A DNA stretch of 64,000 bases from Deferrisomatales bacterium (GTDB taxonomy: Bacteria; Desulfobacterota; Deferrisomatia; Deferrisomatales; JACRMM01), in NCBI GenBank assembly GCA_033551855.1, contig JAWSUI010000014.1, positions 14,406 to 78,405 of the forward strand. The letters run 5' to 3'. A program made the position numbers and the translations under genes. Numbering within the stretch: position 1 is the stretch's first letter; each line of letters opens with the position of its first letter. Of the stretch, positions 5,207 to 46,658 are shown piece after piece. The notes below the pieces were generated by a model. It did not search any database and was not told where the DNA came from. It saw nothing but the letters and a program-made list of their open reading frames with translations.

Positions 5207-5214
5207 GGCAGTCC

Positions 5215-6743: not shown

Positions 6744-6875
6744 TCCTTCCCTGCCGGCGAGCCGGCGCGGTGACGGTGCGCAGCGCAGTCGGGCGGTCCT
6801 CCGGGGCGAACGCCGCTCCCCGTCCAATCCGGCGCGACCGGCGTCCACAGAGAACCGTAGGGTTCGCGCGGGTCG

Positions 6876-6905
6876 ATCATAGTCAAGCCCTACGGGAGGA
6901 TTCAA
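6876..6905 (-). promoter_or_regulatory. Candidate sigma70 promoter for mlaEFD-purH-purD
   Basis: TTGAAT-18-TATGAT on the minus strand. Confidence 0.45.
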
Positions 6906-7252
6906 GGCGAAACCGCCCACCGGCCTGCCCCATCAACGCCGCACCCCCGACCGCCGGGACGCCGGCGGACCTGGCGTCACCGACTCCTTTCGGCTCCACC
7001 TTGGCGTGTCTCGGCCCTGGCGGCGCGACCGAGAATGGAGCTCACCCGGGCGGGAACCGAGTCCTCGGGCACCGGGATGACCGGGTGGACCCGACCGGAT
7101 CGGCGGACGCCCGGGGAATACCCGTCCGGCCGCGGGAGGCCCTGCGGCAGGCGACCGCGCTTCCCCCTTGCGGCCCCACATCGCAGATCGCAGTGGGCAG
7201 GGCCACTCGGCCGCAGAGAGAACAAGGGGAAGAACGGCACCGGAAGCGGTGC

Positions 7253-26481: not shown

Positions 26482-26497
26482 GAATGAACGTTCATTC
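26482..26497. promoter_or_regulatory. Palindromic operator, probably bound by the TetR-type FadR encoded in the operon
   Basis: Perfect 16-bp palindrome GAATGAAC|GTTCATTC just downstream of the -10; shares the GAATGA..TCATTC half-sites of the B. subtilis FadR(YsiA) box. Confidence 0.8.
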
Positions 26498-26507
26498 AGA
26501 GGGCCCC

Positions 26508-28304
26508 ATGACCATTCCCGAGATGATACGAGACCGCCACGGTCAGTGGAAGGACCGCCCCTGCATGAGGACGAAGGACTCGGGCGCATATCGGGACGTC
26601 ACCTGGGACGAGTTCTACGGGTTTGCCGTCGCGACCGCCGGCGCCCTGGTCGGTCGCAGTTTTCAACCGGGCGACCGGGCCGCGGTTCTGAGCCCCACCC
26701 GCTACGAATGGGCGGTGGCCGACACGGCCATTCTAACCGCCGGCGGGCTCACCGTGCCCCTCTACCCCACCCTCACCCGCCGGGAGGTCAAGGACCTTCT
26801 GGAGCGCAGCGGGTCCACGATCCTCTTCGCCTCCGACACCGAGCAGATCGAGAAGGTGCTGCCCCTGCTCGACGAAGTCGCGGGGCTGCGCCTCCTGGTG
26901 GCCTTCGACCCGGACGCCCTCGCAGGCATGAGCGATCCGCGGGTCCTCACCCTCGAGGCCTTCGCCGCCGAGGGGCGCAACCACCCCCTGTCCGACATCG
27001 AGAAACGGCTCGCGGCAGTCGGGGAGGACGACGTGGCCACCGTCATCTTCACCTCGGGCACGACCGGCGAGCCCAAGGGGGTCGCCCTCACCCACCGGAA
27101 CATTCTTTCCAACGTGGAGGCGAGCCTCGAGGAGTTCGACCTGGGCCCCCAAGATGTCTGCCTGGCCCACCTGCCCCTGGCACACATCCTCGAGAGGATG
27201 GGGGGCTACTATCTGATGCTCTACTGCGGCACGGTGATCGCGTACGCGGAAAACCTCACCACAGTGGCCCAGAACCTCGCAGAGGTGCGACCGACCGTGG
27301 CCGTGAGCGTCCCCCGGATCTTCGAGAAGGTCTACGCGGGCATCCAGATGAAGGCGGCGGAGGCCCCGGGACCGGTGAAGGCCCTCACCTTCTGGGCCCT
27401 CGGCGTGGCCCGTCGCGTCGGGGAATGCCAGGCCACCGGTCGCAAGTTTCCTCTGGGGCTGCAGCTCTCATACGCCCTCGCCGACCGGCTGGTCTTCGCC
27501 AAAGTTCGAGAAAAGATGGGCGGGCGGATTCGCTTCTTCATCTCGGGCGGGGCCCCGCTGTCGCCAGAGCTGGCGAAATTCTTCAACGCGGTCGGCATCC
27601 GGATCTACGAGGGCTACGGTCTCACCGAGACCTCCCCGGTGGTGGCCGTCAATACTCCGACGCGAAACCGCATCGGCACCGTCGGGCCGCCTCTGTCCAA
27701 CCTGCGGGTACGCATCGCGAAGGACGGCGAGATCCTGGTCAAGGGGCCGAGTGTGTTCCCCGGCTATGACGGTGACGAGCGGGCGACCCGAGAGGCCTTC
27801 ACGGACGACGGCTTCTTCCTCACCGGGGACATCGGCGAGTTGGACGCCGACGGATTCCTCAAGATCACGGACCGGAAGAAGGACGTGATCGTGACGGCGG
27901 GGGGCAAGAACGTGGCACCCCAGAAGGTCGAAAACATCCTCAAGCTGAGCAAGTACATCGCGGACGCCATGCTGTTCGGGGACCGGAAGAAGTTCATCTC
28001 CGCCGTCATCGTGCCCGACCCGGAGTGGCTCCGGCGGTACGCCCAGCTCAAGGGAATCCCCGAGCAACCCCTGGAGGCACTCGTCGAGAACGAAGTGGTG
28101 CTGGACTACTACACCCGCCTCGTCGAGGAGCTCCAGCGGAAGGCCCAACTCGCCTCCTACGAGAGCGTGAAGAAGTTCGTCCTCATCCCCCACGAGTTCT
28201 CGGTCGGTGACGGGGAAGTGACGCCGACCATGAAGGTGCGCCGCCAGAACGTCACCTCCCACTACCGAGACCGGCTCGAGGCCCTCTACAAGGAAGGCGG
28301 ATGA
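26508..28304 (+). CDS. fadD: Long-chain fatty acid--CoA ligase
   Basis: 'IFTSGTTGEPKGV', 'EGYGLTETSP', 'TGDIG', 'ITDRKKD', 'TPTMKVRR'. Confidence 0.93.
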   Translation: MTIPEMIRDRHGQWKDRPCMRTKDSGAYRDVTWDEFYGFAVATAGALVGRSFQPGDRAAVLSPTRYEWAVADTAILTAGGLTVPLYPTLTRREVKDLLERSGSTILFASDTEQIEKVLPLLDEVAGLRLLVAFDPDALAGMSDPRVLTLEAFAAEGRNHPLSDIEKRLAAVGEDDVATVIFTSGTTGEPKGVALTHRNILSNVEASLEEFDLGPQDVCLAHLPLAHILERMGGYYLMLYCGTVIAYAENLTTVAQNLAEVRPTVAVSVPRIFEKVYAGIQMKAAEAPGPVKALTFWALGVARRVGECQATGRKFPLGLQLSYALADRLVFAKVREKMGGRIRFFISGGAPLSPELAKFFNAVGIRIYEGYGLTETSPVVAVNTPTRNRIGTVGPPLSNLRVRIAKDGEILVKGPSVFPGYDGDERATREAFTDDGFFLTGDIGELDADGFLKITDRKKDVIVTAGGKNVAPQKVENILKLSKYIADAMLFGDRKKFISAVIVPDPEWLRRYAQLKGIPEQPLEALVENEVVLDYYTRLVEELQRKAQLASYESVKKFVLIPHEFSVGDGEVTPTMKVRRQNVTSHYRDRLEALYKEGG

Positions 28305-28921
28305 ATCGCTCCCCCGGCCGCAGGGCAGAGCGCCAGCAGAAGATCCTCGCCGCGGCCGTGCGGGCGTTCAGCCGCCAAGGGTACCACCACTGCACCGTAG
28401 CCCAGGTCGCCCGGGAGGCGGGGGTCGCCGACGGCACCATCTACCTCTACTTCCAGAACAAGGAGGACCTGCTGGTGAGCGCCTTCCGGCACGTGCTCGA
28501 GAGCCTGTTCCAGCCCCTGGACGCCGAGATCGCCGCCATCGCCGACCCGCTGGCGAAACTGCGCCGCCTGGTGGAGATGCACCTCGAGCTCATGGAGGGC
28601 GACCCGGACGTCGCCTCCTTTCTCCAGTTTCAGCTCCGCCAGCCCGAGACCTCGGTGCGGACCGCAATCTCCGGACCCCTGGGGCAGTATGCTCGCCGCA
28701 TCGAGGCCATTCTCGAGGCCGGCAAGGCAGCGGGGCAGATCCGTACCGACGTGGGCACCCGGATGCTGCGGCGTTTGATTTTCGGGGCCGTGGACGAAAC
28801 CGTCTCGGCGTGGCTGCTCCGGGCCGGGCGCGAGCCTTTGCTGCCCAAGGCGGCACCCCTTCTCGACGTGATCCTCGACGGGATCCGCCGCCCCGGATCG
28901 GCCTGCCCCGGGCACCCGTAG
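28301..28921 (+). CDS. fadR: TetR-family regulator, FadR(YsiA)-like
   Basis: 'AGVADGTIYLYFQNKEDLL' HTH; 'IFGAVDE' motif; embedded in the beta-oxidation operon. Confidence 0.85.
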   Translation: MNRSPGRRAERQQKILAAAVRAFSRQGYHHCTVAQVAREAGVADGTIYLYFQNKEDLLVSAFRHVLESLFQPLDAEIAAIADPLAKLRRLVEMHLELMEGDPDVASFLQFQLRQPETSVRTAISGPLGQYARRIEAILEAGKAAGQIRTDVGTRMLRRLIFGAVDETVSAWLLRAGREPLLPKAAPLLDVILDGIRRPGSACPGHP

Positions 28922-28986
28922 GACCGGCTCCAAGCTGGGGCCCGACGCTCGGGCCCCGTCGACCCGTTGGGAAAGGAGGAGCGTCC

Positions 28987-31389
28987 ATGCCCATCCGAAA
29001 GTCAGCCGTGCTGGGGGCCGGGGTCATGGGGAGCGCCATCGCGGCGCACCTGGCCAACGCCGGCATCCCGACTGTGCTCCTGGACATCGTACCCCGGGAG
29101 CCTACCGACGAGGAGAACAAGAAGGGACTCGACCTCAGCCACCCTCTCGTACGAAACCGGCTGGCCCGCGACGGCATCCAGAAGGCCCTCAAGGCGAGCC
29201 CTGCTGCCTTCGGCCACCGGGATCGGGCGGCCCTGGTGACCCCGGGCAATCTCGAGGACGACCTGCCGAGCCTCTCCGAGGTCGACTGGGTCGTGGAGGC
29301 GGTGGTGGAGCGCCTGGACATCAAGACCGCTCTGTTCGCCCGCCTGGTTCCCCACTTGAAACCCGGCTGCCTGCTTACCACCAACACGTCCGGGCTCTCG
29401 GTGAACGCCATGGCCGAGGCCCTGCCCGAACGCCTCCGGCCCCGATTCTTCGGCACCCATTTCTTCAACCCGCCCCGGTACATGCACCTCATGGAGCTCG
29501 TCCCGGCGTCCGGCACGGATCGGGCCGCTCTCGAGGCCTTCGCCCGTTTCGCCGAGGACCGCCTGGGCAAGGGGGTCGTGTACGCCAAGGACACCCCGAA
29601 CTTCATCGCGAACCGGGTGGGGGTCTTTTCCGTGCTCTACACCCTGCGGGCCATGGAAGACCACGGTCTCGCCGTGGAGCAGGTGGACGCCCTGACCGGG
29701 AAGGCCCTGGCCCGCCCCAAGTCCGCCACCTTCCGCACGGCGGACCTGGTGGGCCTCGACGTGCTGGCTCACGTGGCCCGCACGCAGTACGAAGGGGCCC
29801 CGGACGACGAGCGCCGCGACGTGTTCCGTCTTCCCCCGTGGCTCGACGCCATGGTGCAGAAGGGGCTCCTCGGCCAGAAGTCCGGCGGCGGCTTCTACAA
29901 GCGGGTGAAGCAGGGCGGGAAGAAGGAGACCCTCGCCATCGACCCCGCCACCGGGGAGTACCGACCCAAGGGCAAGGCCGACTTCCCCTCCCTGGCCGAG
30001 GCAAAAGGGGTAGAGGACCCGGGGCGGCGCGCGGCCAAGCTCCTGGGGGGAAAGGACGCCGGCGCACGGTTCGCCTGGGACGTCACCGCAGAGACCCTGC
30101 TGTACGCCGCCCGCCGCATCCCGTCCGTGGCGGGCGACGTGCCGTCCATCGACCGGGCCATGCGCTGGGGCTTCGGGTGGGAGATCGGCCCCTTCGAGCT
30201 CTGGGACGCCCTGGGGGTGAAGGCGTCGGTGGAGCGGATGACCGCAGAGGGCCGCGAGGTGCCCGAGGGGGTGGCGGCCCTGGCCGCGTCCCCCGAGCCC
30301 GCCTTCTACCTCCGGGAGGGTACCCGGACCCGGGTGTGGGACCCGGTGTCCAAAGCCCACGTTTCCATGGAAGAGCGGCCCCGGGTGGTGGCTCTCGCCG
30401 ACCTCAAGGCCGCGGGGCGCAAGCTCTTCTCGAACCCCGAGGCCACCCTGGTGGACCTGGGCGACGGTGTCGCGTGCCTGGAGTTCCACTCGAAGATGAA
30501 CGCCATCGGGGGCGGCATCCTCCAGGCCATCCAGAAGACCGTGGCGGAGGCCGGCTCCTCGTACCAGGCCCTGGTGATCGGAAACCAGGGGGAGAATTTC
30601 TCCGTGGGTGCCAACCTCATGCTGCTGCTCTTCGAGGCGCTCGAGGGCAACCTCCCGGAGGTCGATGCCATGGTGCGCGCCTTCCAGGAAGGGACCATGG
30701 CGCTCAAGTATGCGCCCGTCCCGGTGGTGGCAGCGCCCTTCGGGCGCGTCCTCGGAGGGGGCGCCGAGGTGTGTCTCCACGCCCACCGGGTCCAGGCGAG
30801 CCACGAGACCTACATGGGCCTCGTGGAGGTCGGCGTGGGGCTTCTGCCCGCAGGCGGGGGCACCAAGGAGTTGTTGCTCCGGGCGATGGCCCATGTCCCG
30901 ACCGGGACGGGTGCCGACCCCCTCCCCTGGGTCCGGAAGGCCTTCGAGGCCATCGGCATGGCCAAGGTCAGCCTCTCGGCCTGGGAGGCCTTCGACCTCG
31001 GCCTCCTCCGGGCGGGAGACTCGGTATCCATGAACCCCGAGCACCTGATCCTCGACGCGAAGCGCGCCGCCCTCGACCTCCTGGAGACGGGGTGGCAGCC
31101 CATGCAGCGGCCGGCGAAGGTCCCCGTCATGGGCCGCGACGGTCTGGCGAACATCCGGTCCATGCTCCACAACATGGTCCGGGGACGGCAGATCAGCGAG
31201 CACGACGCCCTGGTGGGGGAAAAGGTCGGCTGGGTCCTGTGCGGGGGCGAGGTGGACAACGGCACCGTGGTGGACGAGGACTACCTCTTGACCCTGGAGC
31301 GCCGAGCCTTCGTGGAGCTGTGCGGCCAGCGCAAGACCCTGGAGCGGATCCAGCACATCCTGAAGACGGGGAAGCCTTTGAGGAACTAG
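28987..31389 (+). CDS. fadN: 3-hydroxyacyl-CoA dehydrogenase / enoyl-CoA hydratase (FadN type)
   Basis: '[12 protein letters not shown]', 'HFFNPPRYM', 'PNFIANR', 'FSVGANL', C-terminal 'GKPLRN'. Confidence 0.93.
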
Positions 31390-31392
31390 CCC

Positions 31393-31450
31393 GTTGCACG
31401 TTGCGGGTTGCCGGTCGGGTTGCCTCCGACGAGCAACGTGCAACGAGCAC
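31393..31450. repeat. Heptamer-repeat inverted hairpin, copy 1
   Basis: GTTGCAC GTTGCGG GTTGCCG ... GCAACGT GCAACGA GCAC in the fadN-fadA spacer. Confidence 0.65.
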
Positions 31451-31486
31451 CGCGCACTGCCGGACCAGTCTCCCAAGGAGATCTCC

Positions 31487-32668
<1,182 letters not shown>

Positions 32669-32678
32669 CACTTGGCTC

Positions 32679-32742
32679 GTTGCGGGTTGCACGTTGCGCG
32701 TCGGAAGAATCTCAACCCGGAACAGGCAAATCGCGACGCGCA
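32679..32742. repeat. Heptamer-repeat inverted hairpin, copy 2 (degenerate)
   Basis: GTTGCGG GTTGCAC GTTGCGC ... CAACCCG GAACAGG CAAATCG CGACGCG in the fadA-fadE spacer. Confidence 0.55.
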
Positions 32743-32761
32743 CTTCCTTAAGGAGGAAACC

Positions 32762-34534
32762 ATGTCCGAGACGGCCTACGTGAGGGGCGGCAGCTTCCTC
32801 GTCCGGGAATCTCAACCCGACGACATCTTCACCCCGGAGGACTTCACCTCCGAGCAGCTCCAGTTCGCCAAGACCGCGCGGGACTTCATCGAGAACGACG
32901 TCCTGCCCGTCTCGGACCGCCTCGAGGCCAAGGAACCCGGCCTGAGCGAGGCTCTCATGCGCAAGGCCGGGGAGCTCGGCCTCCTCATGGCGGACGTCCC
33001 GGAGGAGTACGGCGGACTCGGCCTCGACAAGGCCTCGAGCGCCCTCATCACCGAGAACATCTCGGGCCAGGGGTCCTTCTCGGTCACGTACGGGGCCCAC
33101 GTGGGCATCGGCACCCTGCCGCTGGTCTACTACGGGAGCCCCGAGGTCAAGCGAGAGTTCCTGCCGGGTCTCGCCGACGGCTCCCGCATCGGGTGCTACT
33201 GCCTCACGGAGCCCACCTCGGGCTCCGACGCCCTCTCCATCCGCACCAAGGCCGTGCTGTCCGAGGACGAGACCCACTACGTGCTCAACGGCACCAAGAT
33301 GTGGATCACCAACGGCGGCTCCGCCCAGGTCTTCACGGTCTTCGCCAAGGTCGACGGCGAGCTCTTCACGGGCTTCGTCATGGGCAGGGACACCCCCGGC
33401 CTGAGCGTGGGCCCCGAGGAGCACAAGCTCGGGATCGTCGGCTCCTCCACCACCACGGTCGTCCTCGAGGACACCCGGGTGCCCGTGGGCAACGTCCTCG
33501 GCGAGGTGGGAAAGGGCCACAAGATCGCTTTCAACATCCTCAACATCGGCCGCTTCAAGCTCGGCGCCGGGTGCGTCGGAAGCTGCAAGCGGGCTCTGGC
33601 ACACGCCCTGGCCTACGCCCTCGAGCGCAGGCAGTTCGGCAAGCGGCTCGCGGAGCTCGGGCTCATCCGGGAAAAACTGGCCCGCATGGCCGTGCGCACC
33701 TACGCCGCCGAGTCGGCCGTGTACCGGACCGTCGGCCTCATCGACCACATCCTCCGGAGCGGCGAGGCCCACGGGGAGGCGGCGCTGCAGTCCATCGAGG
33801 AGTACAGCGTGGAGTGCGCCCTCGTGAAGCTCCTGGGCAGCGAGGCGCTCGACTTCGTGGTGGACGAGACCCTGCAGATCTACGGCGGCTACGGCTACTC
33901 CAGCGAGTACCCTGCCGAGCGCTACTACCGCGACAGCCGCATCAATCGCATCTTCGAGGGGACCAACGAGATCAACCGGCTCCTGGTGCCGGGGATGCTC
34001 CTCCGCAAGGCCATGAAGGGCGAGATCCCCCTCTTCGCCGCCGCCAAGGCCCTCCAGGAGGAGCTCCTGGGCATCCCGAGCTTCGACCTGGACGCCGAGG
34101 CCGGGCTGCTGGACCCGGAGAAGAAGATCGTCGCGAACCTCAAGAAGATCTTCCTCCTCGTCGCAGGCGTAGCGGCCCAGAAGTACGGGAAGGACCTGGC
34201 CGAGCAGCAGCCGGTCCTGGCCCGGCTGGCGGACCTGGCCCTGGCCGCCTTCACCGCCGAGTCCACCCTGCTCCGGGCCCTCAAGGATGCAGGACGGCGC
34301 GGCGAAGAGGCCGCCGCCTTCCCGGTCGCGGCGGCCCGGATCACCTGCGAGGAGGCCGTCTCACAGGCGGAAAGTCTGGCCCGCGAGGGGCTGGCCGCCA
34401 TGGAGGCCGGCGACACCCTGAACACCATGCTCGCCGCCCTGCGGCGCCTCTTGCGCCGCACCCCGGCCGACACCGTGGCCCTGCGGGAGCAGATTGCAAC
34501 CAGGCTGGTGGAGATGGAGCGCCTCGTGTACTGA
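32762..34534 (+). CDS. fadE: Acyl-CoA dehydrogenase (FadE/YusJ type)
   Basis: 'GGSFL' start, 'CLTEPTSGSDA', 'NGTKMWITN', 'RINRIFEGTNEINR'. Confidence 0.95.
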   Translation: MSETAYVRGGSFLVRESQPDDIFTPEDFTSEQLQFAKTARDFIENDVLPVSDRLEAKEPGLSEALMRKAGELGLLMADVPEEYGGLGLDKASSALITENISGQGSFSVTYGAHVGIGTLPLVYYGSPEVKREFLPGLADGSRIGCYCLTEPTSGSDALSIRTKAVLSEDETHYVLNGTKMWITNGGSAQVFTVFAKVDGELFTGFVMGRDTPGLSVGPEEHKLGIVGSSTTTVVLEDTRVPVGNVLGEVGKGHKIAFNILNIGRFKLGAGCVGSCKRALAHALAYALERRQFGKRLAELGLIREKLARMAVRTYAAESAVYRTVGLIDHILRSGEAHGEAALQSIEEYSVECALVKLLGSEALDFVVDETLQIYGGYGYSSEYPAERYYRDSRINRIFEGTNEINRLLVPGMLLRKAMKGEIPLFAAAKALQEELLGIPSFDLDAEAGLLDPEKKIVANLKKIFLLVAGVAAQKYGKDLAEQQPVLARLADLALAAFTAESTLLRALKDAGRRGEEAAAFPVAAARITCEEAVSQAESLAREGLAAMEAGDTLNTMLAALRRLLRRTPADTVALREQIATRLVEMERLVY

Positions 34535-34690: not shown

Positions 34691-34719
34691 TTGACACGGG
34701 AGGGGGCTCCCCATATCTT
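34691..34719 (+). promoter_or_regulatory. sigma70 promoter for the lipase-DUF1302-DUF1329-YCF48-RND cassette
   Basis: TTGACA-17-TATCTT; palindrome GCAAGCTTGC about 25 nt downstream. Confidence 0.7.
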
Positions 34720-34849
34720 CACGCGCGAACACGTGAACCCGCGCGCAAGCTTGCTCACAGTGTTGAACCATTCCATCTCCACATGAGGAGCGGAAGCTCG
34801 AAGTAGCGCACCCGGGGTCAACCTACAGCGACGCAGCAGAGGAGGACTC

Positions 34850-36940
34850 ATGAGACGCAAGCCGTGGCGCATCCACCTGCTGGCAGCACTGGCCCTTGCA
34901 CTCGCGGCCCTGCTCCTCGGTTGCGGGTCGGACACACTCCCGGGGTTAAACAGGGATTTCGAGGAAGACCCGACGTCGGCAGGGCACCCGGCGGCTCGTG
35001 GGTTCGTCGCCAATTTCGACCTGACGGGAGGCATCGTGCCCTCCGCCAACAATCTGCTCTTCAGCGGGTCCCAGGACGGCACCCTCAACATCCCCATCCC
35101 CGAAGGGGACCCGGCTGCCGCGCTCAAGGCGACCCTCAACGCCCTGGACGGGTTCTCCACGAACGTCCCCGTCACCACGACCTTCAGCGAGGCCGTCGAC
35201 CCGGCGAGCCTGACCCCGTCCACCGTGCGGGTCTTCGAGGTCGCCCTGGCCGGCATCGCCGGGGCCGTCACCGGCATCACCCGCGAGTTGGCCTTCGGCG
35301 TCGAGTTCGTCGCCGCCCCCTCCTCCGTGGACCTCACCGGGCGGACCCTGGCGGTGGTTCCCCTGCAGCCGCTCAAACCCAAGACCAGTTATCTGGTTGC
35401 CCTGACCAACGGCATTCGGAGCACCGACGGCCGGTCGGCGATGGCGGCCGATCACTACCTGACGGCGAAGACCGTGCCCCACGACCTCACCGGGTCGCCG
35501 GCGGGCGCCCTGGAGCCGGTGCGCCGTCTGGTGCAGGCCCAGGAGGCGGCGCTGGCAGCGTTCGGCGTGGACCCGGCCCCGGTGGTGCTCAGCTGGACCC
35601 TCACCACCCAGTCGGTGGGCGACGTGCTGGCCCGCGTCCGGCAACTGGCGGAGGGCGCCGTGGCCGTCGCGCCGGGGCCCGCGGCCACGACGGGCGCCCT
35701 GGTTCCGGGCAGCCCCGATGCCGCGCTAATCTATGTTGGGACCCTGACCGCCCCGTACTACCTCGGCGTGCCGTCGCCGGAGGCCCCCACCGCCCCGCTG
35801 ACCCGCTTCTGGCTCCCCTCCGCGCCCGACTTCGGCGAGCACCTGACCGGCCTGAACGCCGCGGTGGGGCCCGAGAAGGTGGCGGATCAGACCATGCCGC
35901 TCCTCCTGACGATCCCCCGCTCGGACAAGCCGCAGGGGGGGTGGCCGGTGGTCGTCTTCCAGCACGGGATCACGAGCAACCGAACCGCCTTGCTCGGCAT
36001 CGCCGACGCCCTGGCACTGGCGGGCTTTGCCGCGGTGGCCGTCGACCTGCCGCTGCACGGGCTACCGGCGGGGCACCCATTGCGTCTTCCCGGGGTGGCG
36101 GAACGAACGTTCGACCTGGACCTGGTCAACAACGAGACGGGGGCACCGGGACCCGATGGTGTGCCCGACGATTCCGGCACGCACTTCATCAACCTCTCGA
36201 GTCTCTTGACGATGCGCGACAACCTGCGCCAGGGCGTCGCAGATCTCTTCGCCCTCACCCAAGCCCTGGAGACCCTCGACTACGACGGCGGCGGGGCGGA
36301 CCTCGACCCGTCCGAGGCCTACTTCCTGGGCCATTCCCTGGGAGCCATCGTGGGCACCCCCCTGCTCGCACTCGAACCCGGGCTCCGAGCCGCCGTCCTG
36401 GGGATGGCCGGCGGCGGCATCGCGAAGCTCCTGGACGGCTCCGCCACCATCGGGCCGAGGCTCGCGGCGGGGCTGGCCGCCAACGGAATCCTCAAGGGGA
36501 CGGCCGATTACGAGAGCTTCTTCGGGGTGGCGCAGACGGCCTTGGACCCGGCGGACCCCCTGAACTACGCGACCTCCGCCGTCACGGGCCGCGGTGTGCT
36601 CCTCTACGAGGTGCTGGGGGATCTCGTGGTCCCGAACAACGTCCTCCCCAGCAATCCGGTGCTGGCTCCCGGCACGGTTCCCGCGGTCCTGGCCGGCACG
36701 GAGCCCCTGATCCGCGCCATGAGCCTGGCGCAGGTGAGCGAGACCACACCGGCCGAAGGTCTGAGCCCGGCTCCCCTGCGCGCCTGGGTCGGCTTCACCG
36801 CCGGGGACCACGCCTCCCTGCTGAGCCCGGCGGCCAGCCTGGCCGCCACCCAGGTGATGCAGGCGGCGGCGGCCACCTTCCTCGCCACGGACGGCGGCCG
36901 CATCGTGATCGCCGATGAGACGGTGGTCCTGGGACCCTGA
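34850..36940 (+). CDS. Lipoprotein alpha/beta-hydrolase lipase (Pla-1/cef-like) with Ig-like N-terminal region
   Basis: Lipobox 'LLGC'; 'LNALDGFST'; 'FQHGIT'; 'DLPLHG'; 'RDNLRQ'; nucleophile elbow GHSLG; 'GDHASLL'. Confidence 0.85.
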   Translation: MRRKPWRIHLLAALALALAALLLGCGSDTLPGLNRDFEEDPTSAGHPAARGFVANFDLTGGIVPSANNLLFSGSQDGTLNIPIPEGDPAAALKATLNALDGFSTNVPVTTTFSEAVDPASLTPSTVRVFEVALAGIAGAVTGITRELAFGVEFVAAPSSVDLTGRTLAVVPLQPLKPKTSYLVALTNGIRSTDGRSAMAADHYLTAKTVPHDLTGSPAGALEPVRRLVQAQEAALAAFGVDPAPVVLSWTLTTQSVGDVLARVRQLAEGAVAVAPGPAATTGALVPGSPDAALIYVGTLTAPYYLGVPSPEAPTAPLTRFWLPSAPDFGEHLTGLNAAVGPEKVADQTMPLLLTIPRSDKPQGGWPVVVFQHGITSNRTALLGIADALALAGFAAVAVDLPLHGLPAGHPLRLPGVAERTFDLDLVNNETGAPGPDGVPDDSGTHFINLSSLLTMRDNLRQGVADLFALTQALETLDYDGGGADLDPSEAYFLGHSLGAIVGTPLLALEPGLRAAVLGMAGGGIAKLLDGSATIGPRLAAGLAANGILKGTADYESFFGVAQTALDPADPLNYATSAVTGRGVLLYEVLGDLVVPNNVLPSNPVLAPGTVPAVLAGTEPLIRAMSLAQVSETTPAEGLSPAPLRAWVGFTAGDHASLLSPAASLAATQVMQAAAATFLATDGGRIVIADETVVLGP

Positions 36941-37102
36941 GGAAGGGCCGAGAATGCGGCCGGGAGGGAGATACCGGGGCCGGGGGGCGTGCTCGGCGCA
37001 CCCGAGACAGCGCCGCCGGACACCTGCAAGGCCTCCCGTCCCGCCCGGCCGGTGGTCCCGTCGCGAAACCTTCACAACTCTCTCACGCCACGGGGAGCTC
37101 CC

Positions 37103-39115
37103 ATGAAAAAGACGGCGCACGAGATCGCACGCCAGCGCGTACCGGCCCGGGGTCTGGTGGCCCTCGCCGCATCCCTGCTGCTCCTCCTGCCCACGGCTGG
37201 CGGGGCCTTCCAGCTGTACGACGGGGACTACTTCCAGGTCCGACTGGACACGACCCTCTCCTACGGCGTGATGTGGCGGGTCCAGAAGCGGGACAAGGAC
37301 CTCATCGGAATCGAAAACGGGGGGAGGGCCTTCTCCCTCAATGGGGACGACGGCAACCTGAACTACGACCGCGGCGTCGTGAGCAATCTCGGCCGGATCA
37401 CCTCGGAGCTCGAGATCCGAGGGCGGGACGTCGGTGCCTTCTTCCGGGGAACCGCCTTCTACGACTATGAGAACATGCGGCGGGACCGAGCCCGCACGAG
37501 CCTCTCGGACGATGCCAAGGAGCTCGTGGGCAAGGACATCGACCTGCTGGATGCCTACGTCTGGGGCAGGGTGAACCTCGGAACCCGACCGGCCCAACTC
37601 CGCGTGGGCGAACAGGTGGTGAGCTGGGGCGAGAGCACCTTCATCCAGAACAGCATCAACGTGCTGAACCCGATCAACGTGGCCGCCCTCCGGCAGCCCG
37701 GTTCCGAGCTGAAGGAGGCCCTCGTGCCGGAGGGCATGGTCTGGGGCTCCCTGGGCCTGAGCCGCAACCTGAGCCTCGAGGCCGTGTACCTCTACGACTG
37801 GGAGCCGGTGGAGATCGACCCGGTCGGCTCCTACTTCAGCACCTCCGACATCGTGGGCGCCGGCGGCAAGAAGGTGATGCTCGGCTTCGGGGCCTTTGCG
37901 GACGGCGGCAACGCCGAAGCGGCGGACGTGTTCCAGGCCGTGCCCCGGGGCTCGACCCGCGACGCCAGGGACCAGGGCCAGTACGGCGCAGCCCTTCGGG
38001 TGTTCGCCCCGGGGCTCAACGACACCGAATTCGGGTTCTTCTACATCAACTACCACAGCCGCCTGCCGGTGATCAGCTCCCGTACGGGCACCCTGGCCGG
38101 GGTGGCCGGTGCTGGCGCCATCGGGTCCACCTCCGGACCCCTCGTGGCGCAGACCGTCGGGGCGCAGCTGGTCGGCGGCGCGACGCCGGAAGCGGCCGTG
38201 GAGGCCGGGATCGCCGCCGGTACGGGGGCGGGAATGACGCAGGACCAGGCGGCGTTCGTGGCAGGCGTCACCGCCAATCAGATCGAGGGGTTCACCGTCC
38301 CGGCGGCGATATCGGCCGCCGCCACCGACGCCTATGCCAAGACCGCCCACTACTTCACGGAGTACCCGGAGGACATCAAGCTCTTCGGCGTCAGCTTCAA
38401 CACCCTTCTCCGGAACACGGGGATCGCCCTCCAGGGCGAGATCTCCCACCGCCGGGACGTGCCGCTCCAGGTGGACGACCTGGAACTCCTCTTCGCCACC
38501 CTCGGCACCCTCAACGCGGACCTCGCCGACAAGAACCAGCTCGAGAACACGTACATGAAGCTGGAGCACGAGCTCTCGGGCTACATCCTGCGCAACATGA
38601 CCCAGGTCCAGGTCACGGGCACCAAGGTCTTCGGGCCGGGTTTTCTGTGGACCGACCAGTCCGTGCTGCTGGGAGAAGTCGGCTACACGCGGGTCCACAA
38701 CATGCCCGACAAGAGCGACCTGCGGCTCGAGGCGCCCGGCACCTTCATCAGCGGCAACGAGGATCTGGCCTACACCCACGGCAAGTATGCCGCGGGCCTG
38801 GTCGAGCCGGCCTCGGCCTTCGCCGACGCCAACTCCTGGGGTTACCGACTCGTCTATCGGCTGGACTTCAACAACGCGGTGGGCGCGGTCAACCTCTCGC
38901 CCCGCGTGGCCTGGGCCCACGACGTGAGAGGGAACACCCCGGGGCCGGGGGGGAACTTCCTGGAGGGACGCCGGGCGGCGACCCTGGGCATCGGCGCCAC
39001 GTACCAGAGCTCCTGGTCCGGGGACCTGAGCTACACGAACTTCTTCGGGGCCGGGCGGCAGAACCTCATCAACGACCGCGACTTCGTCGCGCTCAACATC
39101 AAGTACTCGTTCTGA
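37103..39115 (+). CDS. DUF1302-family outer-membrane beta-barrel protein
   Basis: Signal peptide; 'DTTLSYG', 'NGDDGNLNY', 'GEQVVSWGES', 'YHSRLP', 'DRDF'; C-terminal 'KYSF'. Confidence 0.9.
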   Translation: MKKTAHEIARQRVPARGLVALAASLLLLLPTAGGAFQLYDGDYFQVRLDTTLSYGVMWRVQKRDKDLIGIENGGRAFSLNGDDGNLNYDRGVVSNLGRITSELEIRGRDVGAFFRGTAFYDYENMRRDRARTSLSDDAKELVGKDIDLLDAYVWGRVNLGTRPAQLRVGEQVVSWGESTFIQNSINVLNPINVAALRQPGSELKEALVPEGMVWGSLGLSRNLSLEAVYLYDWEPVEIDPVGSYFSTSDIVGAGGKKVMLGFGAFADGGNAEAADVFQAVPRGSTRDARDQGQYGAALRVFAPGLNDTEFGFFYINYHSRLPVISSRTGTLAGVAGAGAIGSTSGPLVAQTVGAQLVGGATPEAAVEAGIAAGTGAGMTQDQAAFVAGVTANQIEGFTVPAAISAAATDAYAKTAHYFTEYPEDIKLFGVSFNTLLRNTGIALQGEISHRRDVPLQVDDLELLFATLGTLNADLADKNQLENTYMKLEHELSGYILRNMTQVQVTGTKVFGPGFLWTDQSVLLGEVGYTRVHNMPDKSDLRLEAPGTFISGNEDLAYTHGKYAAGLVEPASAFADANSWGYRLVYRLDFNNAVGAVNLSPRVAWAHDVRGNTPGPGGNFLEGRRAATLGIGATYQSSWSGDLSYTNFFGAGRQNLINDRDFVALNIKYSF

Positions 39116-39125
39116 GAGACGGGAG

Positions 39126-40502
39126 ATGATCGCCATGTGCACGAAGGCAATCGCGATGAGCATCGGCGCCCTGTGCCTCGCCCTCACGGTGACGGCAGGC
39201 GCGGCGTGGGCAAAGGCCACCTCGGAAGAGATCGCCCGCCTCGGCGCCGACCTCACCCCCTTGGGAGCAGAGAAGGCCGGCAACCAGGACGGGACCATCC
39301 CCCCCTGGGAAGGCGGCATCACGGTGCCGCCCTCCGGCTACAAGCCGGGCATGCACCACCCGGACCCCTACCCGGACGACGAGATCCTGTTCACGATCAC
39401 GGCCGCCAACATGGATCAGTACGCGGACAGGCTCGCGGCCGGGCACCAGGCCATGCTCCAGGCCTACGATTCGTTCAGGCTCCACGTGTACCCCACCCGC
39501 AGGAGCGCCTCGGCGCCTCAGCGCATCTACGACATGACGCGCCGGATCGCGGCCACGGCCGAGCTCGTCGACGGCGGAAACGGCGTCACGGGGGCGGTGA
39601 ACGGGATCCCCTTCCCCATCCCCAGGACCGGGATCGAGGTCATCTGGAACCATCTCCTGCGGTACCGGGGCGACACCGTGGCGCGCTACGTCGCCCAGGC
39701 CGCGCCGACCCGCGGAGGGTCCTACACGCTGGTGCGGTTCGAAGACGAGTCGATGATCGTGTACAGCCACGAGGGGATGACCGAGGAGTCCCTCCAGAAC
39801 AAGATCCTCTACTTCAAGCAGATCGTCACCGCCCCGGCGCGGCTCGCGGGGGACATGCTCCTCGTCCACGAGACCTTGGACCAGGTCAAGGAGCCCCGCA
39901 GCGCCTGGATCTACAACCCCGGCCAGCGCCGCGTGCGCCGGGCGCCGAACGTCGCCTACGACAACCCGGGAACGGCCTCCGACGGCATGCGCACCACCGA
40001 CCAGTTCGACATGTTCAGCGGCGCCACGGACCGGTACGACTGGGAGCTGGTCGGCAAGCGGGAGATCTACGTCCCCTACAACTCCTACAAGCTCCACAGC
40101 GACCAGCTCAGGTACAGGGACATCCTGACGCCCCTCCACGTCAACCCGGAGCACCTGCGCTACGAGCTCCACCGGGTGTGGGTGGTGGAGGCCAAGGTGA
40201 AGGAAGGCTCCCGCCACATCTACAAGCGCCGCACGTTCTACGTGGACGAGGACAGCTGGCAGATCCTGCTGGCGGACCAGTACGACAACCGCGACCAGCT
40301 CTGGCGGGTTTCCGAGGGCCACGTCATCAACTACTACGACCTGCCGGCCCTGTGGACGACCCTGGAAGTCCACACCGACCTGCAGGCCGGGCGCTACCTG
40401 GCCATCGGCCTCGACAACGAGAGCCGCATGTACGACACCACCATCCGGCGGACCCTGGAGGACTACACGCCGGCGGCCCTGCGGGCGGAGGGCACCCGCT
40501 GA
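39126..40502 (+). CDS. DUF1329-family periplasmic protein (LolA-like lipid-carrier fold suggested)
   Basis: 'LTPLGAEKAGN.DGTIP.W.GG', 'PFPIP', 'YNPGQRRVRRAP', 'RYELHRVWVVEA', 'YVDEDSW'. Confidence 0.92.
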   Translation: MIAMCTKAIAMSIGALCLALTVTAGAAWAKATSEEIARLGADLTPLGAEKAGNQDGTIPPWEGGITVPPSGYKPGMHHPDPYPDDEILFTITAANMDQYADRLAAGHQAMLQAYDSFRLHVYPTRRSASAPQRIYDMTRRIAATAELVDGGNGVTGAVNGIPFPIPRTGIEVIWNHLLRYRGDTVARYVAQAAPTRGGSYTLVRFEDESMIVYSHEGMTEESLQNKILYFKQIVTAPARLAGDMLLVHETLDQVKEPRSAWIYNPGQRRVRRAPNVAYDNPGTASDGMRTTDQFDMFSGATDRYDWELVGKREIYVPYNSYKLHSDQLRYRDILTPLHVNPEHLRYELHRVWVVEAKVKEGSRHIYKRRTFYVDEDSWQILLADQYDNRDQLWRVSEGHVINYYDLPALWTTLEVHTDLQAGRYLAIGLDNESRMYDTTIRRTLEDYTPAALRAEGTR

Positions 40503-40525
40503 GGCTCGCGGCTGCGCCGGCATCG

Positions 40526-41482
40526 ATGCAGGGGCGAGCCCTCACCTTGGCCGTCGTCGGAGGATGGGCCGCGCTGTGCCTCGTCGCCGGATCTGCCTCC
40601 GCGGGCACCCCGGCCTCCCCGCGCCCGTCCGTCCCGGCCCGACTGGCTGCCCAGTCCCTCCTCCTGGACGTGTCGAGCTCCGGGGAGCTCCTTGCGGCCG
40701 TGGGAAAGCGGGGGCACATCCTCCTGTCCCGGGACGGGGGCCGCTCGTGGTTGCAGGCAGACGTACCGGTGCAGGCCCTCCTGACCGGAATCCACCTCCT
40801 CGACGACCAGTCCGGGTGGGCCGTTGGCCACGACGGGGTCCTCCTGCATACCGCCGACGGGGGCCGGACGTGGGAGCTCCGACGGTGGGCCCCGGAAGAG
40901 GAGAAGCCCCTGCTGGACGTGTGGTTCCAGGACCAGGAACGGGGCTTCGCCGTGGGCGCCTACGGCCTCCTCCTCATGACGACCGACGGCGGTGCGACGT
41001 GGTCTGAACAGCCGGTCGCGGACGACGAGTGGCACCTCAACCACGTGGCGGGATCCAGTACGGGGCGGATCTACGTCGCCGCCGAGGCAGGGCACATCTT
41101 CCGTTCGGACGACGGGGGGGAAACCTGGCGACCGCTGCCCTCCCCCTATGAGGGTTCTTTTTTCGGAACCCTGCCCCTCGAGGGCGACGAGTTACTCCTG
41201 TTTGGCTTACGGGGCCACCTCTTCCGCTCCCCGGACGCGGGGGAGTCCTGGGAGGAGGTCGAGAGCGGCACGGAGGCGAGCCTGACCTCCGGCCTGCTGC
41301 TCCGGGACGGTAGCGTTCGGGTCGCCGGCCTCGAGGGAATCGTGCTCGAGGGCCCCGACGGCGCCCCCCCCTTCACCCTCCGCCGGCACGAGGACCGCAA
41401 GGGCATCTCGGCCCTGGCGGAAGCCCCCGACGGCAGTGTGATTGCCGTGGGGGAGCTCGGGGTGCGGATCCTCGAGCGGTAG
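40526..41482 (+). CDS. YCF48/BNR-repeat beta-propeller protein
   Basis: Signal peptide; repeated Asp-box 'S/T.DGG.SW/TW'; 'WAVGHDGVLL'; 'YEGSFFG'. Confidence 0.9.
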   Translation: MQGRALTLAVVGGWAALCLVAGSASAGTPASPRPSVPARLAAQSLLLDVSSSGELLAAVGKRGHILLSRDGGRSWLQADVPVQALLTGIHLLDDQSGWAVGHDGVLLHTADGGRTWELRRWAPEEEKPLLDVWFQDQERGFAVGAYGLLLMTTDGGATWSEQPVADDEWHLNHVAGSSTGRIYVAAEAGHIFRSDDGGETWRPLPSPYEGSFFGTLPLEGDELLLFGLRGHLFRSPDAGESWEEVESGTEASLTSGLLLRDGSVRVAGLEGIVLEGPDGAPPFTLRRHEDRKGISALAEAPDGSVIAVGELGVRILER

Positions 41483-41549
41483 GGATACCCTTCCCCCCGG
41501 GGGCCCATCACGAAGAAGCGAAGAAGGCTTCGGCAGGAGAGGGACAGGA

Positions 41550-43883
41550 ATGAGTTTCTCCTCGGTGGTCCCTTTGCTGGAGCGCCTCGTGTTTCGGCGC
41601 AGACCACTGGTCATCGGGCTGTTTGCCGTCGTCACGGCCTTCATGGCCGTGTCCGCCACCAACTTGCGGGTCGATGCCGGGTTCGAGAAGCTCCTGCCGC
41701 TCCAGCACGAGTACATGCAGACCTTCACCCAGTATCGGGACGAATTCGGGGGCGCCAACCGCGTGCTCATCGCGCTCATGGCGAAAGACGGGGACATCTA
41801 CACCCCCGAGTTCTTCGAGGTGCTCAAGGACGCCACGGACGAGGTATTCTTCATCCCCGGCGTCGACCGGACCCGGGTCAGCTCCCTGTTCACGCCGAAC
41901 GTGCGGTTCACCGAGGTGGTGGAGGACGGCATCTCCGGGGGCAACGTGGTGCCCGACGACTTCCGCAACACCGCGGAGGACCTGGAGCAGGTGCGGCAGA
42001 ACGTGCTCAAGTCGAGCTACGTGGGCCGCCTCGTCGCGAACGACTTCACCGGGGCCATCATCAGCGCGGAGCTGCTGGAGATCGACCCCAACACAGGGGA
42101 GAAGCTCGACTACCTCGGTGTCGCGGCCCTGCTGGAGGAGAACATCCGCCAGCGCTTCGAGAGCGACGCCGTCGACGTGCACATCATCGGGTTCGCCAAG
42201 GTGATCGGAGACATCACGGCCGGCGCCCGGAGGGTGGTGCTCTTCTTCGCCATCACCTTCGCCATCACGGCCCTGCTGGTCTACGTGTACGCCATGCGGC
42301 CGAAGCTCGCGGTCCTGCCCCTGATCTGCTCGGTGGTGGCGGTGGTGTGGCAGCTCGGGCTCCTGCCGCTCCTGGGCTACGGCATGGACCCCATGGGCAT
42401 CCTGGTGCCCTTCCTGGTCTTCGCCATCGGGGTGAGCCACGGGGTCCAGATGGTGAGCGCCAACGGCGCCGAGGTCTTCGACGGGGCCGACGGTTTCACG
42501 GCGGCAAGGAACAGCTTTCGCCGGCTCCTGATCCCCGGGGGCATCGCGCTGGCCAGCGACACCATCGGCTTCATCACGATCCGCCTCATCGACATCCAGG
42601 TCATCCAGGACATGGCGGTGACGGCCAGCCTCGGGGTGGGCTCCATCATCCTGACCAACCTGGTGCTCCTGCCGGTCCTTTTGAGCTACGTGACCTACGA
42701 CGACGCCTTCCGGGAGAAGATGCACCGGCGCTCCGATCGGGTGAACCGGGGCTGGAGGAAGATGGCGTTTCTCACCGAACGCAGGCCGGCGGCGTGGATC
42801 CTCGCGGGCGCAGCGGCTCTCTTCGCCTTCGGCGCGTGGAAGGGATCGGACGTCAAGATCGGGGACCTTCACCGGGGGGTGCCCGAGCTGCGCGCGGACT
42901 CCCGCTACAACCGCGACAGCGAGGTCATCAGCGAGCGGTTCTCCATCGGTGTGGACATCCTGACCGTGATCGTGGAGACCGTGCCCGAAGGGTGCGTCGA
43001 CTACGAGATCATGACCACCGTCGATCGTTTCGAGTGGCACATGCGAAACGTCGAGGGGGTACAGTCGGTGGTGGGGCTGCCGGGCATCGCCAAGGTCATC
43101 ACCTCTGGCTGGAACGAGGGAAGCCTCAAGTGGCGGGAGCTTTCCCGAAACCAGCTCGTGCTGGTCCAGTCCGTGACCTACGTGCCCACCTCGAGCGGCC
43201 TCCTGAACGCCGACTGCAGCGTACTTCCCGTGCTCGTATTCACGGAGGATCACAAGGCGGAGACCATCGACCGGGTGGTGGACGCGGTCAAGGGGTTCCA
43301 GGCGGCCTCTGGATCCGACCGGCTGAACTTTCGCTTGGCGGCAAGCAACGTGGGGGTCATGGCGGCCACGAACGAGGAGGTGAAGGCTTCCCAGTTCCCG
43401 ATCCTCCTCTACGTCTTCGGCGCGGTCGTGGCCCTTTGCCTGGTCACCTTCCGCTCGGTGCGGGGAACCCTGTGCATCGTGGTCCCCCTGGGCCTGGTCT
43501 CACTTCTCGCCTACGCCCTCATGGCAGCCCTGGAGATTGGCCTGAAGGTCTCCACCCTCCCGGTGGTGGCGCTGGGGGTCGGGGTCGGGGTGGACTACGG
43601 GATCTACATCTACAGCCGCTTCCGAGGATTGTTGGAGCAGGGCCTGCCCATCGGGGAGGCCTACTTCACCACCCTGCGCCGCACCGGGAACGGGGTGGTG
43701 TTCACCGGAGCCACCCTGGCCATCGGGGTGGCCACCTGGATCTTCTCTCCCCTGAAGTTCCAGGCGGACATGGGGATTCTCCTCACCTTCATGTTCCTTC
43801 TGAACATGCTGGGTGCCATCATCCTCTTGCCGGCCCTGGCGACCTGGCTCCTCCCGGAGGGGCGGGGGGATGCCGGAGGCTAG
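41550..43883 (+). CDS. RND superfamily MMPL/HAE3-type transporter
   Basis: Two RND repeats; 'FAIGVSHGVQ', 'GVGVGVDYGIY', 'FQADMGILL'. Confidence 0.92.
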   Translation: MSFSSVVPLLERLVFRRRPLVIGLFAVVTAFMAVSATNLRVDAGFEKLLPLQHEYMQTFTQYRDEFGGANRVLIALMAKDGDIYTPEFFEVLKDATDEVFFIPGVDRTRVSSLFTPNVRFTEVVEDGISGGNVVPDDFRNTAEDLEQVRQNVLKSSYVGRLVANDFTGAIISAELLEIDPNTGEKLDYLGVAALLEENIRQRFESDAVDVHIIGFAKVIGDITAGARRVVLFFAITFAITALLVYVYAMRPKLAVLPLICSVVAVVWQLGLLPLLGYGMDPMGILVPFLVFAIGVSHGVQMVSANGAEVFDGADGFTAARNSFRRLLIPGGIALASDTIGFITIRLIDIQVIQDMAVTASLGVGSIILTNLVLLPVLLSYVTYDDAFREKMHRRSDRVNRGWRKMAFLTERRPAAWILAGAAALFAFGAWKGSDVKIGDLHRGVPELRADSRYNRDSEVISERFSIGVDILTVIVETVPEGCVDYEIMTTVDRFEWHMRNVEGVQSVVGLPGIAKVITSGWNEGSLKWRELSRNQLVLVQSVTYVPTSSGLLNADCSVLPVLVFTEDHKAETIDRVVDAVKGFQAASGSDRLNFRLAASNVGVMAATNEEVKASQFPILLYVFGAVVALCLVTFRSVRGTLCIVVPLGLVSLLAYALMAALEIGLKVSTLPVVALGVGVGVDYGIYIYSRFRGLLEQGLPIGEAYFTTLRRTGNGVVFTGATLAIGVATWIFSPLKFQADMGILLTFMFLLNMLGAIILLPALATWLLPEGRGDAGG

Positions 43884-46071: not shown

Positions 46072-46658
46072 CGCTGGACGTGGTGGTGGCAGGGGTCGGG
46101 GGTCAGGGGGTGGTGACCTTGGCAGGGGTGCTGGCCCGGGCGGCAGTGCTCGAAGGGTATGACGCCCACTTCACCGCCCAGTCCGGTCTGGCCCAGGTGG
46201 GCTCCCCGGTCCTCGCCCACGTGCGGGTCGGCACCCCGGCCGGGCCGAGCCCCAAGATCCCGAGAGGGCGAGCCGGCTTCGTCGTAGGGCTGGAGCGCCT
46301 CGAGGCCATGAAGCTGGCATCCTTCCTGTCCCCCTCGGGCCAGGCGCTGCTCTCGGACGAGGCGGTGCGGCCCTACGAGGCCAGGTTCCGGCGCGACCGC
46401 TACCCGACGCGGCGGCAGGCGGAGGAACGGTTCGGCGCAGGCCGTGTCTTCTGGGTCCCGGCACCCGACCTCGCCCGGCCTCACGGCCCCCCTCCCCTGG
46501 TGAGTGCGGTCATGCTCGGGGCGCTGGCCGGGATGAGCCGGGTCGTGGAGCGCGACAACCTGGTGCTGGCCCTTCGCGCGGCGGTACCCGCCCTGGCCGA
46601 CGCGGAGGCCGAGGCGTTCTTCGAGGGCTACCGGTACGTCACGGGCCTAGACGAGTGA
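46068..46658 (+). CDS. iorB: Indolepyruvate:ferredoxin oxidoreductase beta subunit-like
   Basis: 'AGVGGQGVV', 'GLAQ.G', 'HVR.G', 'ERLEA'; GTGA overlap with the iorA stop. Confidence 0.85.
   Translation: MTLDVVVAGVGGQGVVTLAGVLARAAVLEGYDAHFTAQSGLAQVGSPVLAHVRVGTPAGPSPKIPRGRAGFVVGLERLEAMKLASFLSPSGQALLSDEAVRPYEARFRRDRYPTRRQAEERFGAGRVFWVPAPDLARPHGPPPLVSAVMLGALAGMSRVVERDNLVLALRAAVPALADAEAEAFFEGYRYVTGLDE

Follow-up and report, generated by a model that had tools for sequence, protein, structure and literature searches.

How does a bacterium that carries a full set of beta-oxidation genes but no FadL obtain the acyl lipids that those enzymes would consume? The question is raised by a 64,000-nucleotide stretch of DNA from a Deferrisomatales bacterium (contig JAWSUI010000014.1), the whole of which is referred to here as the window, in which a row of five genes at 34691-43883 specifies a lipoprotein lipase, a DUF1302 outer-membrane beta-barrel, a DUF1329 periplasmic protein, a Ycf48-like beta-propeller and an RND inner-membrane protein. 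The whole source genome, which is 100% complete by marker genes, contains no match to the FadL profile and no tblastn match to FadL below E 0.3, and OmpW, considered as an alternative channel, was not found in it; yet a full beta-oxidation set adjoins the five-gene module, which argues for import. We put at roughly one in two the probability that the module is a route, independent of FadL, by which lipase-derived acyl lipids travel from the surface of the cell to its inner membrane. An earlier note on this DNA had proposed such a route; what it said of the gene content and of the FadL-free setting has stood up, and the cassette does appear to stand in for FadL, while its remark that the mechanism is largely uncharacterised was overstated and the beta-oxidation adjacency to which it drew attention is confined to the genus.

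All five genes are present on the plus strand, as judged from reading of the open reading frames (ORFs) together with profile searches. They encode a VolA/Pla-1-type lipoprotein lipase of 696 amino acids (34850..36940; PF12262, TIGR03502, a lipobox and a GHSLG motif), a DUF1302 outer-membrane beta-barrel of 670 amino acids (37103..39115; PF06980, 1.9e-169), a DUF1329 periplasmic protein of the LolA superfamily of 458 amino acids (39126..40502; PF07044, 1.7e-158), a Ycf48-like BNR beta-propeller of 318 amino acids (40526..41482; PF14870, 8.6e-23), and an HAE3/MMPL-type RND inner-membrane protein of 777 amino acids (41550..43883; MMPL, 5.1e-25; TIGR00921, 4.8e-50). When the start codons are read, the intergenic gaps along the row are 162, 10, 23 and 67 nucleotides. 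A putative sigma-70-like promoter site, TTGACA-17-TATCTT, lies ahead of the lipase gene on the same strand (34691..34719) with 10 of 12 positions matched, and it is the only such site between 34400 and 44300 (shuffled sequence gives a mean of 0.3), so that the single promoter site and the five-gene content described in the earlier note are both borne out. Alignment with a second genome of the same genus (G001) shows that both hexamers and their flanks are kept while the rest of the spacer has diverged. A second promoter within the 162-nucleotide gap between the lipase and DUF1302 genes is possible. Among the 38 ORFs of the window that were scanned there is no membrane fusion protein (MFP, HlyD-type), TolC/OEP or FadL, again as had been noted before; with no MFP or TolC and an ACR_tran match of only 2.5e-4, the row does not have the make-up of a tripartite HAE1 pump of the AcrAB-TolC kind. 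The row is real and conserved and not a chance arrangement, because the same five genes recur in two more distant genomes of the phylum (G005 and G008) and in 22 of the 80 lipase loci described below, in several phyla.

The closest functional precedent for the lipase is in Vibrio cholerae, in which fadL and volA (VCA0862/VCA0863) form one transcript. There VolA, a lipoprotein with lysophospholipase activity that is exposed at the cell surface, is required for growth on lysophosphatidylcholine, and FadL has been proposed to take up the fatty acid that it releases (Pride et al., PMC3656444). The window resembles that arrangement in that a lipase of the same family (PF12262, GXSXG, and a lipoprotein leader with a residue other than Asp at +2) stands beside a gene for an outer-membrane protein. 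It differs in that no FadL gene is there to be cotranscribed; the lipase comes first and is followed instead by the DUF1302 cassette, that is, by an unrelated large barrel and three more envelope proteins. We compared the neighbours of lipase genes more widely, with a lipase-profile scan of one genome per species that gave 599 candidate stretches, 492 of them confirmed; the best 80 loci were used and are not a random sample. Neighbours were called by tblastn with the window proteins, and FadL neighbours by Pfam and tblastn. DUF1302 adjoins the lipase in 26 of the 80 loci, of which 22 have all five genes, three lie at contig edges and one (L098) has the lipase and barrel only; the lipase is first in 25 of these 26 and follows the RND gene in the other (L030), and the four cassette genes keep the same order in 22. 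FadL lies directly upstream of the lipase on the same strand in 18 of 80 loci, which is exactly the fadL-volA arrangement. Neither gene adjoins the lipase in 36 loci, and there is not a single locus among the 80 in which both do.

This mutual exclusion extends to whole genomes, in which the two families are nearly complementary, as expected from the anti-correlation with fadL that the earlier note had suggested checking. At a strict threshold of E<=1e-35 for both families the 80 genomes divide into 28 with DUF1302 but no FadL, 44 with FadL but no DUF1302, five with both and three with neither; strong FadL is thus missing from 28 of the 33 DUF1302-positive lipase genomes and present in 44 of the 47 that are DUF1302-negative. 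Fisher's test on this table gives about 3e-13, a value that overstates the evidence because the genomes are related. At the loose threshold (E<=0.001) the numbers with and without FadL are 22 and 23 among DUF1302-positive genomes, and 33 and 2 among DUF1302-negative ones (21/23 and 31/1 as computed on 76 genomes, with four genomes added by hand), and many of the weak DUF1302 matches in this second table are probably other barrels. When the genomes are instead sorted by locus, a FadL-family match (E<=0.001) is found in seven of the 26 with a lipase-linked cassette, four of these matches being strong, and in 48 of the remaining 54. Strong DUF1302 proteins occur in seven of those 54; four of the seven genomes have no FadL, two have weak FadL matches (5.3e-9 and 5.7e-14) and one has both families, and three of the seven have a lipase contig that stops short of the following gene. 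Within the order to which the source genome belongs, FadL is present in one of five genomes with the lipase-linked module and in 16 of 16 others.

The partner of the lipase has also switched repeatedly. A lipase tree of 77 rows (L049, L054 and L093, which have an internal stop in the matched stretch, and the short L079 were left out) requires at least four changes of state between cassette and FadL, and when all three neighbour labels are placed on it there are 14 changes against a shuffled mean of 35. Taken as a comparative signal, the FadL/cassette pattern supports a FadL-substituting role in uptake for the cassette, and we regard it as the most useful result here. It appears to be absent from print: among the papers listed by a literature search none was found that joins the DUF1302 or DUF1329 names with VolA or FadL, supplementary figures apart, of which S2 and S3 in Thompson et al. 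may be relevant to neighbouring genes.

Three related genomes show the five genes in an unchanged order: G001, in which the whole beta-oxidation set also lies upstream and the contig ends inside the module; G005, from another genus of the same family, with a lipase about 60% identical; and G008, from another family of the same order, with a lipase 54% identical. Another member of the genus, G002, has at least the lipase and barrel genes. Four-gene cassettes that lack the lipase are also present, one in G020 and two in G008. Strong DUF1302 matches (E<=1e-30) occur in 14 of 201 sampled genomes of the phylum and the lipase domain PF12262 in only two (G000 and G005), such that 12 of the 14 DUF1302-positive genomes are without a PF12262 lipase; these numbers are too small for phylum-wide sampling to yield more contrasts. 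In the lipase tree the clade that includes the window protein has neighbours labelled Desulfuromusa, Deltaproteobacteria, Nitrospirota and Gammaproteobacteria, and from this placement the five-gene module appears to move between lineages as a unit. Two departures from the usual gene content may be mentioned here. In Wenzhouxiangella (L059:14137-17594) two tandem DUF1329 genes lie between the barrel and the propeller, and in L098 (10001-18673) the lipase adjoins the DUF1302 barrel and there is no DUF1329, propeller or RND gene in the next 4.6 kb, so the barrel may function, or be passed on, independently of the other genes.

The four cassette proteins together form a machine that is predicted to reach across both membranes. 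The lipase gene has a GAGGAGG ribosome-binding site before its ATG, and the protein opens with a leader ending in the lipobox LLLGC (Cys25), followed by Gly at +2 and Ser, from which we infer, by the +2 rule, that it is sorted to the outer membrane as a lipoprotein; by analogy with VolA it is probably exposed at the surface. The GHSLG nucleophile motif spans residues 494-498, and no variation is seen at Ser496, Asp591 and His654 across the 16 aligned homologues; these three residues are candidates for the catalytic triad. The domains recognised are PF12262 (Lipase_bact_N, 1e-18, 68 bits against a cut-off of 22.3) and an Ig-like Big_5 stretch; TIGR03502, the VolA/Pla-1 model, is the nearest NCBIfam (1.5e-100), although at 337.5 bits the match is under the cut-off of 383.9, and surface exposure and lysophospholipase activity are here only predicted. 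The DUF1302 protein has a signal peptide and ends in NIKYSF, with a terminal Phe; PF06980 alone matched it, and PF03349 (FadL/TodX) did not. A structural model was made from the homologue at L028, which is shorter than the window protein and 57% identical to it, and shows a large barrel (mean predicted local distance difference test score, pLDDT, 83.6) that is closest to Occ, OmpF and AlgE channels (TMq 0.35-0.45), with no FadL entry among the structural matches listed to rank 50.

The DUF1329 protein has a leader of the signal-peptidase-I type without a lipobox and a sequence match to LolA_like (PF17131, 1.7e-9); no solved structure matching it by sequence was found. In its model (pLDDT 82.5) an alpha/beta part at the N-terminus leads into a half-barrel, for which the best Foldseek matches are LolA3 of Porphyromonas gingivalis (9tp6, 1.2e-18), 4z48, 3bk5, 3buu and LolA, and the predicted fold is thus that of a LolA-type lipid carrier, combined with a soluble-type leader; the carrier fold is a point in favour of import. 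The entries 4z48, 3bk5 and 3buu are the same ones named for the corresponding protein in PMC6394551. The propeller has an N-terminal signal or anchor, and its profile matches the Ycf48-like structure 2xbg (3.4e-28). The RND protein matches TIGR00921 (HAE3) over residues 17-764 at 4.8e-50, its 170 bits being under the cut-off of 351.9, and a simple hydropathy scan picks out 10 strong segments, to be set against the 12 membrane segments of the HAE3 type, along with two large loops, taken to be periplasmic, of some 190 and 235 residues. Two pairs of residues, S296-H297 and D682-Y683, are invariant among 23 RND homologues and lie in hydrophobic membrane segments; Asp-Tyr pairs occur at comparable places in MmpL3. 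The protein belongs to the same superfamily as HpnN, MmpL3, MmpL4, MmpL5 and BstA, with similar size and topology, but the matches are distant (E from 1e-7 to 1e-14, about 1e-7 for MmpL4 and MmpL3) and involve the C-terminal membrane half only, and those proteins operate with neither an outer-membrane barrel nor a LolA-like partner.

We can thus sketch how the module might operate. The lipase, anchored in the outer membrane, would cleave acyl esters or lysolipids; the DUF1302 barrel would let the fatty acid, or perhaps the intact ester, as the Pseudomonas putida data discussed below suggest, through the outer membrane, and the half-barrel of DUF1329 would take up the acyl chain and ferry it across the periplasm. 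DUF1329 would then hand its cargo to a complex of the propeller and RND protein, in which the proton gradient would drive its release into the inner membrane, and FadD-type ligases would convert the fatty acid to acyl-CoA, trapping it for beta-oxidation by the enzymes encoded nearby. For the hand-over there is a eukaryotic parallel in lysosomes, where NPC2, a soluble beta-sandwich carrier, passes cholesterol to NPC1, a protein of the RND/sterol-sensing domain superfamily. The likeness, a soluble lipid carrier that delivers to an RND-superfamily protein with insertion toward the cytoplasmic side, is an analogy of direction only, as NPC2 has no sequence relationship to DUF1329 and acts in another compartment. 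The inward direction is suggested because the cassette holds the place of a known importer beside the same lipase and because its carriers are mostly without FadL. However, inward transport by the RND protein is something that we purely infer.

If the module does import acyl lipids, it would explain how lipid degraders without FadL are fed, would give a natural cargo to the widespread and unexplained quartet of DUF1302, DUF1329, Ycf48-like and RND proteins, and would challenge the rule that bacterial RND proteins are exporters only. A more far-reaching form of the proposal, that this is the first bacterial RND-superfamily protein in nutrient import, part of a proton-driven, envelope-spanning acyl-lipid line (barrel, LolA-like carrier, then propeller and RND protein) that would have taken the place of FadL beside the same surface lipase more than once and would pass from phylum to phylum as a unit of five genes, is one that we advance tentatively. 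The lipase-led form provides a practical handle, in that the neighbouring enzyme defines the cargo, and there are cultured FadL-less carriers suited to genetics, including Marinicella gelatinilytica, Wenzhouxiangella sp. and Denitratimonas sp.

A number of observations weigh against import. In our own comparison there are only four independent pairs that differ in DUF1302 on well-supported branches of the lipase tree; FadL is opposite in about 2.3 of the four and changes the same way in 0-0.1, and a sign test cannot reach significance because the pairs are so few. Five genomes are strong for both DUF1302 and FadL, and a FadL-family protein is present in eight of the 12 genomes of the phylum that have the cassette without the lipase. 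Within the genus itself G002 has a FadL match (5.1e-48; G002:C455:642-1670) on a short contig of an assembly that is 86% complete and 4% contaminated, which could be either contamination or a real exception. Many of the compared genomes are incomplete metagenome-assembled genomes, in which a missing FadL is no proof of absence. Only in the window and G001 do beta-oxidation genes adjoin the module, which makes this a genus-specific feature, and the FadR-type palindrome of the beta-oxidation genes is absent from the lipase promoter. Lastly, all characterised bacterial relatives of the RND protein export their substrates, and the published work on homologous cassettes, to which we now turn, also includes evidence that runs counter to uptake.

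The four-gene core is already known, and the lipase-led form is a new variant of the AmeABCD-type cassette of Castellaniella defragrans 65Phen, which its authors, Puentes-Cala and Harder, read as an exporter (PMC6394551). The order in AmeABCD is DUF1302 first, DUF1329 (LolA-like) second, a COG4447/Ycf48-like protein third and an HAE3 RND protein fourth; the window agrees in the first three and has an RND protein of probable HAE3 type in the fourth place; AmeABCD also sits in a catabolic island for a hydrophobic substrate with no MFP or TolC. The likeness is one of family and order, and the systems differ in that AmeABCD has no lipase gene and has a monoterpene context, whereas here the context is acyl lipids. 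The most serious competitor to an uptake route, although we consider it doubtful, is that the module is an efflux or detoxification pump of this type, passing free fatty acids, lysolipids or other hydrophobic compounds from the inner membrane or periplasm through the RND protein, propeller, DUF1329 and the DUF1302 barrel, and so shielding the envelope against what its own lipase releases.

Export is the precedent in the RND family, and the invariant titratable membrane residues fit a proton-driven pump. The Ame authors argue further that an outer-membrane protein, two periplasmic proteins and an RND protein together mimic an HAE1 pump, and their deletion mutant lost tolerance to more than 5 mM limonene, even with acetate, and accumulated more Nile Red (PMC6394551); the dye assay is the sole transport assay on a homologous cassette, and it pointed to efflux. 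The Nile Red difference was, however, slight and seen under carbonyl cyanide m-chlorophenylhydrazone only, and the growth of the same mutant was poor when hydrocarbon monoterpenes were the sole carbon source, an outcome equally expected of a defect in uptake (PMC6394551). In P. putida KT2440 the quartet (PP_0765/PP_0766 and PP_2018/PP_2019) is needed for growth on fatty esters: mutants fail on insoluble butyl stearate as sole carbon source, three of the four genes show defects specific to butyl stearate as against myristate, all four are needed on Tween 20, and growth on free fatty acids is normal; an esterase role was suggested (bioRxiv 10.1101/2020.07.04.188060). These fitness data fit the uptake reading, as does the growth defect that monoterpenes as sole carbon source reveal in the Ame mutant. 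The P. putida quartet is of the same four families, but it is split over two loci with a LuxR-type regulator and has no lipase adjacent. P. putida has FadL homologues as well. What an efflux pump would leave unexplained is the cassette's occupation of FadL's place beside the lipase (26 loci against 18, with none having both) and the lack of FadL in 28 of 33 carrier genomes, and on these comparative grounds the data lean away from an AmeABCD-style export of hydrophobic substrates. We note also that in view of the Ame mutant and its dye assay, the P. putida fitness data and published co-folding, the statement in the earlier note that the mechanism is largely uncharacterised was too strong.

A further explanation, which we think improbable, divides the cassette into two functions, with DUF1302 and DUF1329 replacing FadL in uptake across the outer membrane, and the propeller and RND protein forming a separate exporter or homeostasis unit of the inner membrane that is inherited along with them. 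Both P. stutzeri and P. putida keep the two pairs at separate loci, and in the former the pairs have opposing phenotypes on tyrosine (bioRxiv 10.1101/072470), which is a difficulty for a single import line as well; L098, with its lipase and barrel and no other cassette genes nearby, would suit such a division. AlphaFold co-folding of the four proteins with Foldy predicted a barrel-carrier complex and a carrier-propeller-RND trimer, which favours a single import line, and a novel substrate transport system was proposed, but the contact between carrier and RND protein was weak (PMC10866462). A second study, ECLIPSE, gives an 18-strand barrel and an interface score (ipTM) of 0.84 for barrel and carrier, in a quartet conserved in 629 of 635 P. 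aeruginosa strains (PMC13499233). A division of function is harder to reconcile with the finding that all four genes are cofit in several species, including members of Shewanella, Kangiella and Pseudomonas (bioRxiv 10.1101/072470), with the requirement for all four on Tween 20, and with the retention of all four genes in the same order at 22 of the 26 lipase-linked loci. Least probable is that the cassette exports or positions an envelope component, be it a lipid or the lipase itself displayed in a Slam-like manner by the LolA-like protein and barrel, since, although Price et al. reported pleiotropic phenotypes and proposed export of a cell-wall or envelope component (bioRxiv 10.1101/072470), which also counts against import, and although the modelled DUF1329 fold is that of a lipoprotein carrier and VolA's route to the surface has not been established (PMC3656444), the cassette is widespread without the lipase (12 of 14 DUF1302-positive genomes of the phylum), FadL-linked lipases do without it, VolA arrives at the cell surface even in Escherichia coli, which has no such cassette (PMC3656444), and complementarity with FadL is not predicted.

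AupA and AupB of Marinobacter were also considered as possible DUF1302 and DUF1329 proteins, an identification that proved to be wrong, as AupA is described as FadL-like.

The beta-oxidation genes lie upstream of the module on the plus strand (26482..34534) and encode a FadD-like protein, a YsiA-type TetR regulator, a protein with 3HCDH and ECH (enoyl-CoA hydratase) domains, a thiolase and an ACAD protein. A perfect 16-base palindrome, GAATGAACGTTCATTC, is located at 26482-26497, just after a TTGACA sequence and overlapping the first ATG of the fadD ORF; it occurs once in the window and is likely the operator, still putative, of the YsiA/FadR-type TetR regulator encoded at 28301-28921. Translation of fadD probably begins instead at the ATG at 26508. 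A FadR operator shared with the module was rejected, as no copy of GAATGAACGTTCATTC with three or fewer mismatches is present near the lipase promoter, and the only inverted repeat at that promoter is not kept in G001. The adjacency of module and beta-oxidation genes, to which the earlier note had drawn attention, is thus neither kept outside the genus nor accompanied by a shared FadR-type operator.

What flanks the 26 cassette loci varies from one to the next and includes genes for elongation factor P, tRNA synthetases, GlnE and type II secretion proteins L and M, with one pair of ECH and short-chain dehydrogenase/reductase genes and one phospholipase D; conserved catabolic neighbours of the module were therefore rejected, the flanks being unrelated, and the module is self-contained. 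The type II secretion genes L and M lie directly after the RND gene on the same strand in three Marinicella genomes and one other gammaproteobacterium (L074:18710-20361, L078:18680-20394, L082:18747-20395 and L062:12567-14233). Lipases that have neither DUF1302 nor FadL as a partner have lineage-specific neighbours. For example, in Competibacteraceae (L052, L054, L091 and L094) a malonyl-CoA decarboxylase gene is upstream of the lipase, with an ABC-F ATPase gene downstream in L054 and L091, and in Rhodanobacteraceae/Dokdonella (L040, L045, L046, L056, L064 and L070) an epimerase or a DUF2884 protein adjoins the lipase.

Within the window, an indolepyruvate-type ferredoxin oxidoreductase is encoded downstream of the module on the same strand (44182-46658), and a protein of this type also adjoins the G008 module (L020:3-1121), where it is upstream and divergent; this may be a coincidence or a remnant of shared ancestry. 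On the minus strand at 3491-6920 the window also encodes an MlaD/Mce-domain protein of 571 amino acids and an MlaE permease, which constitute a second, unrelated lipid-transport system.

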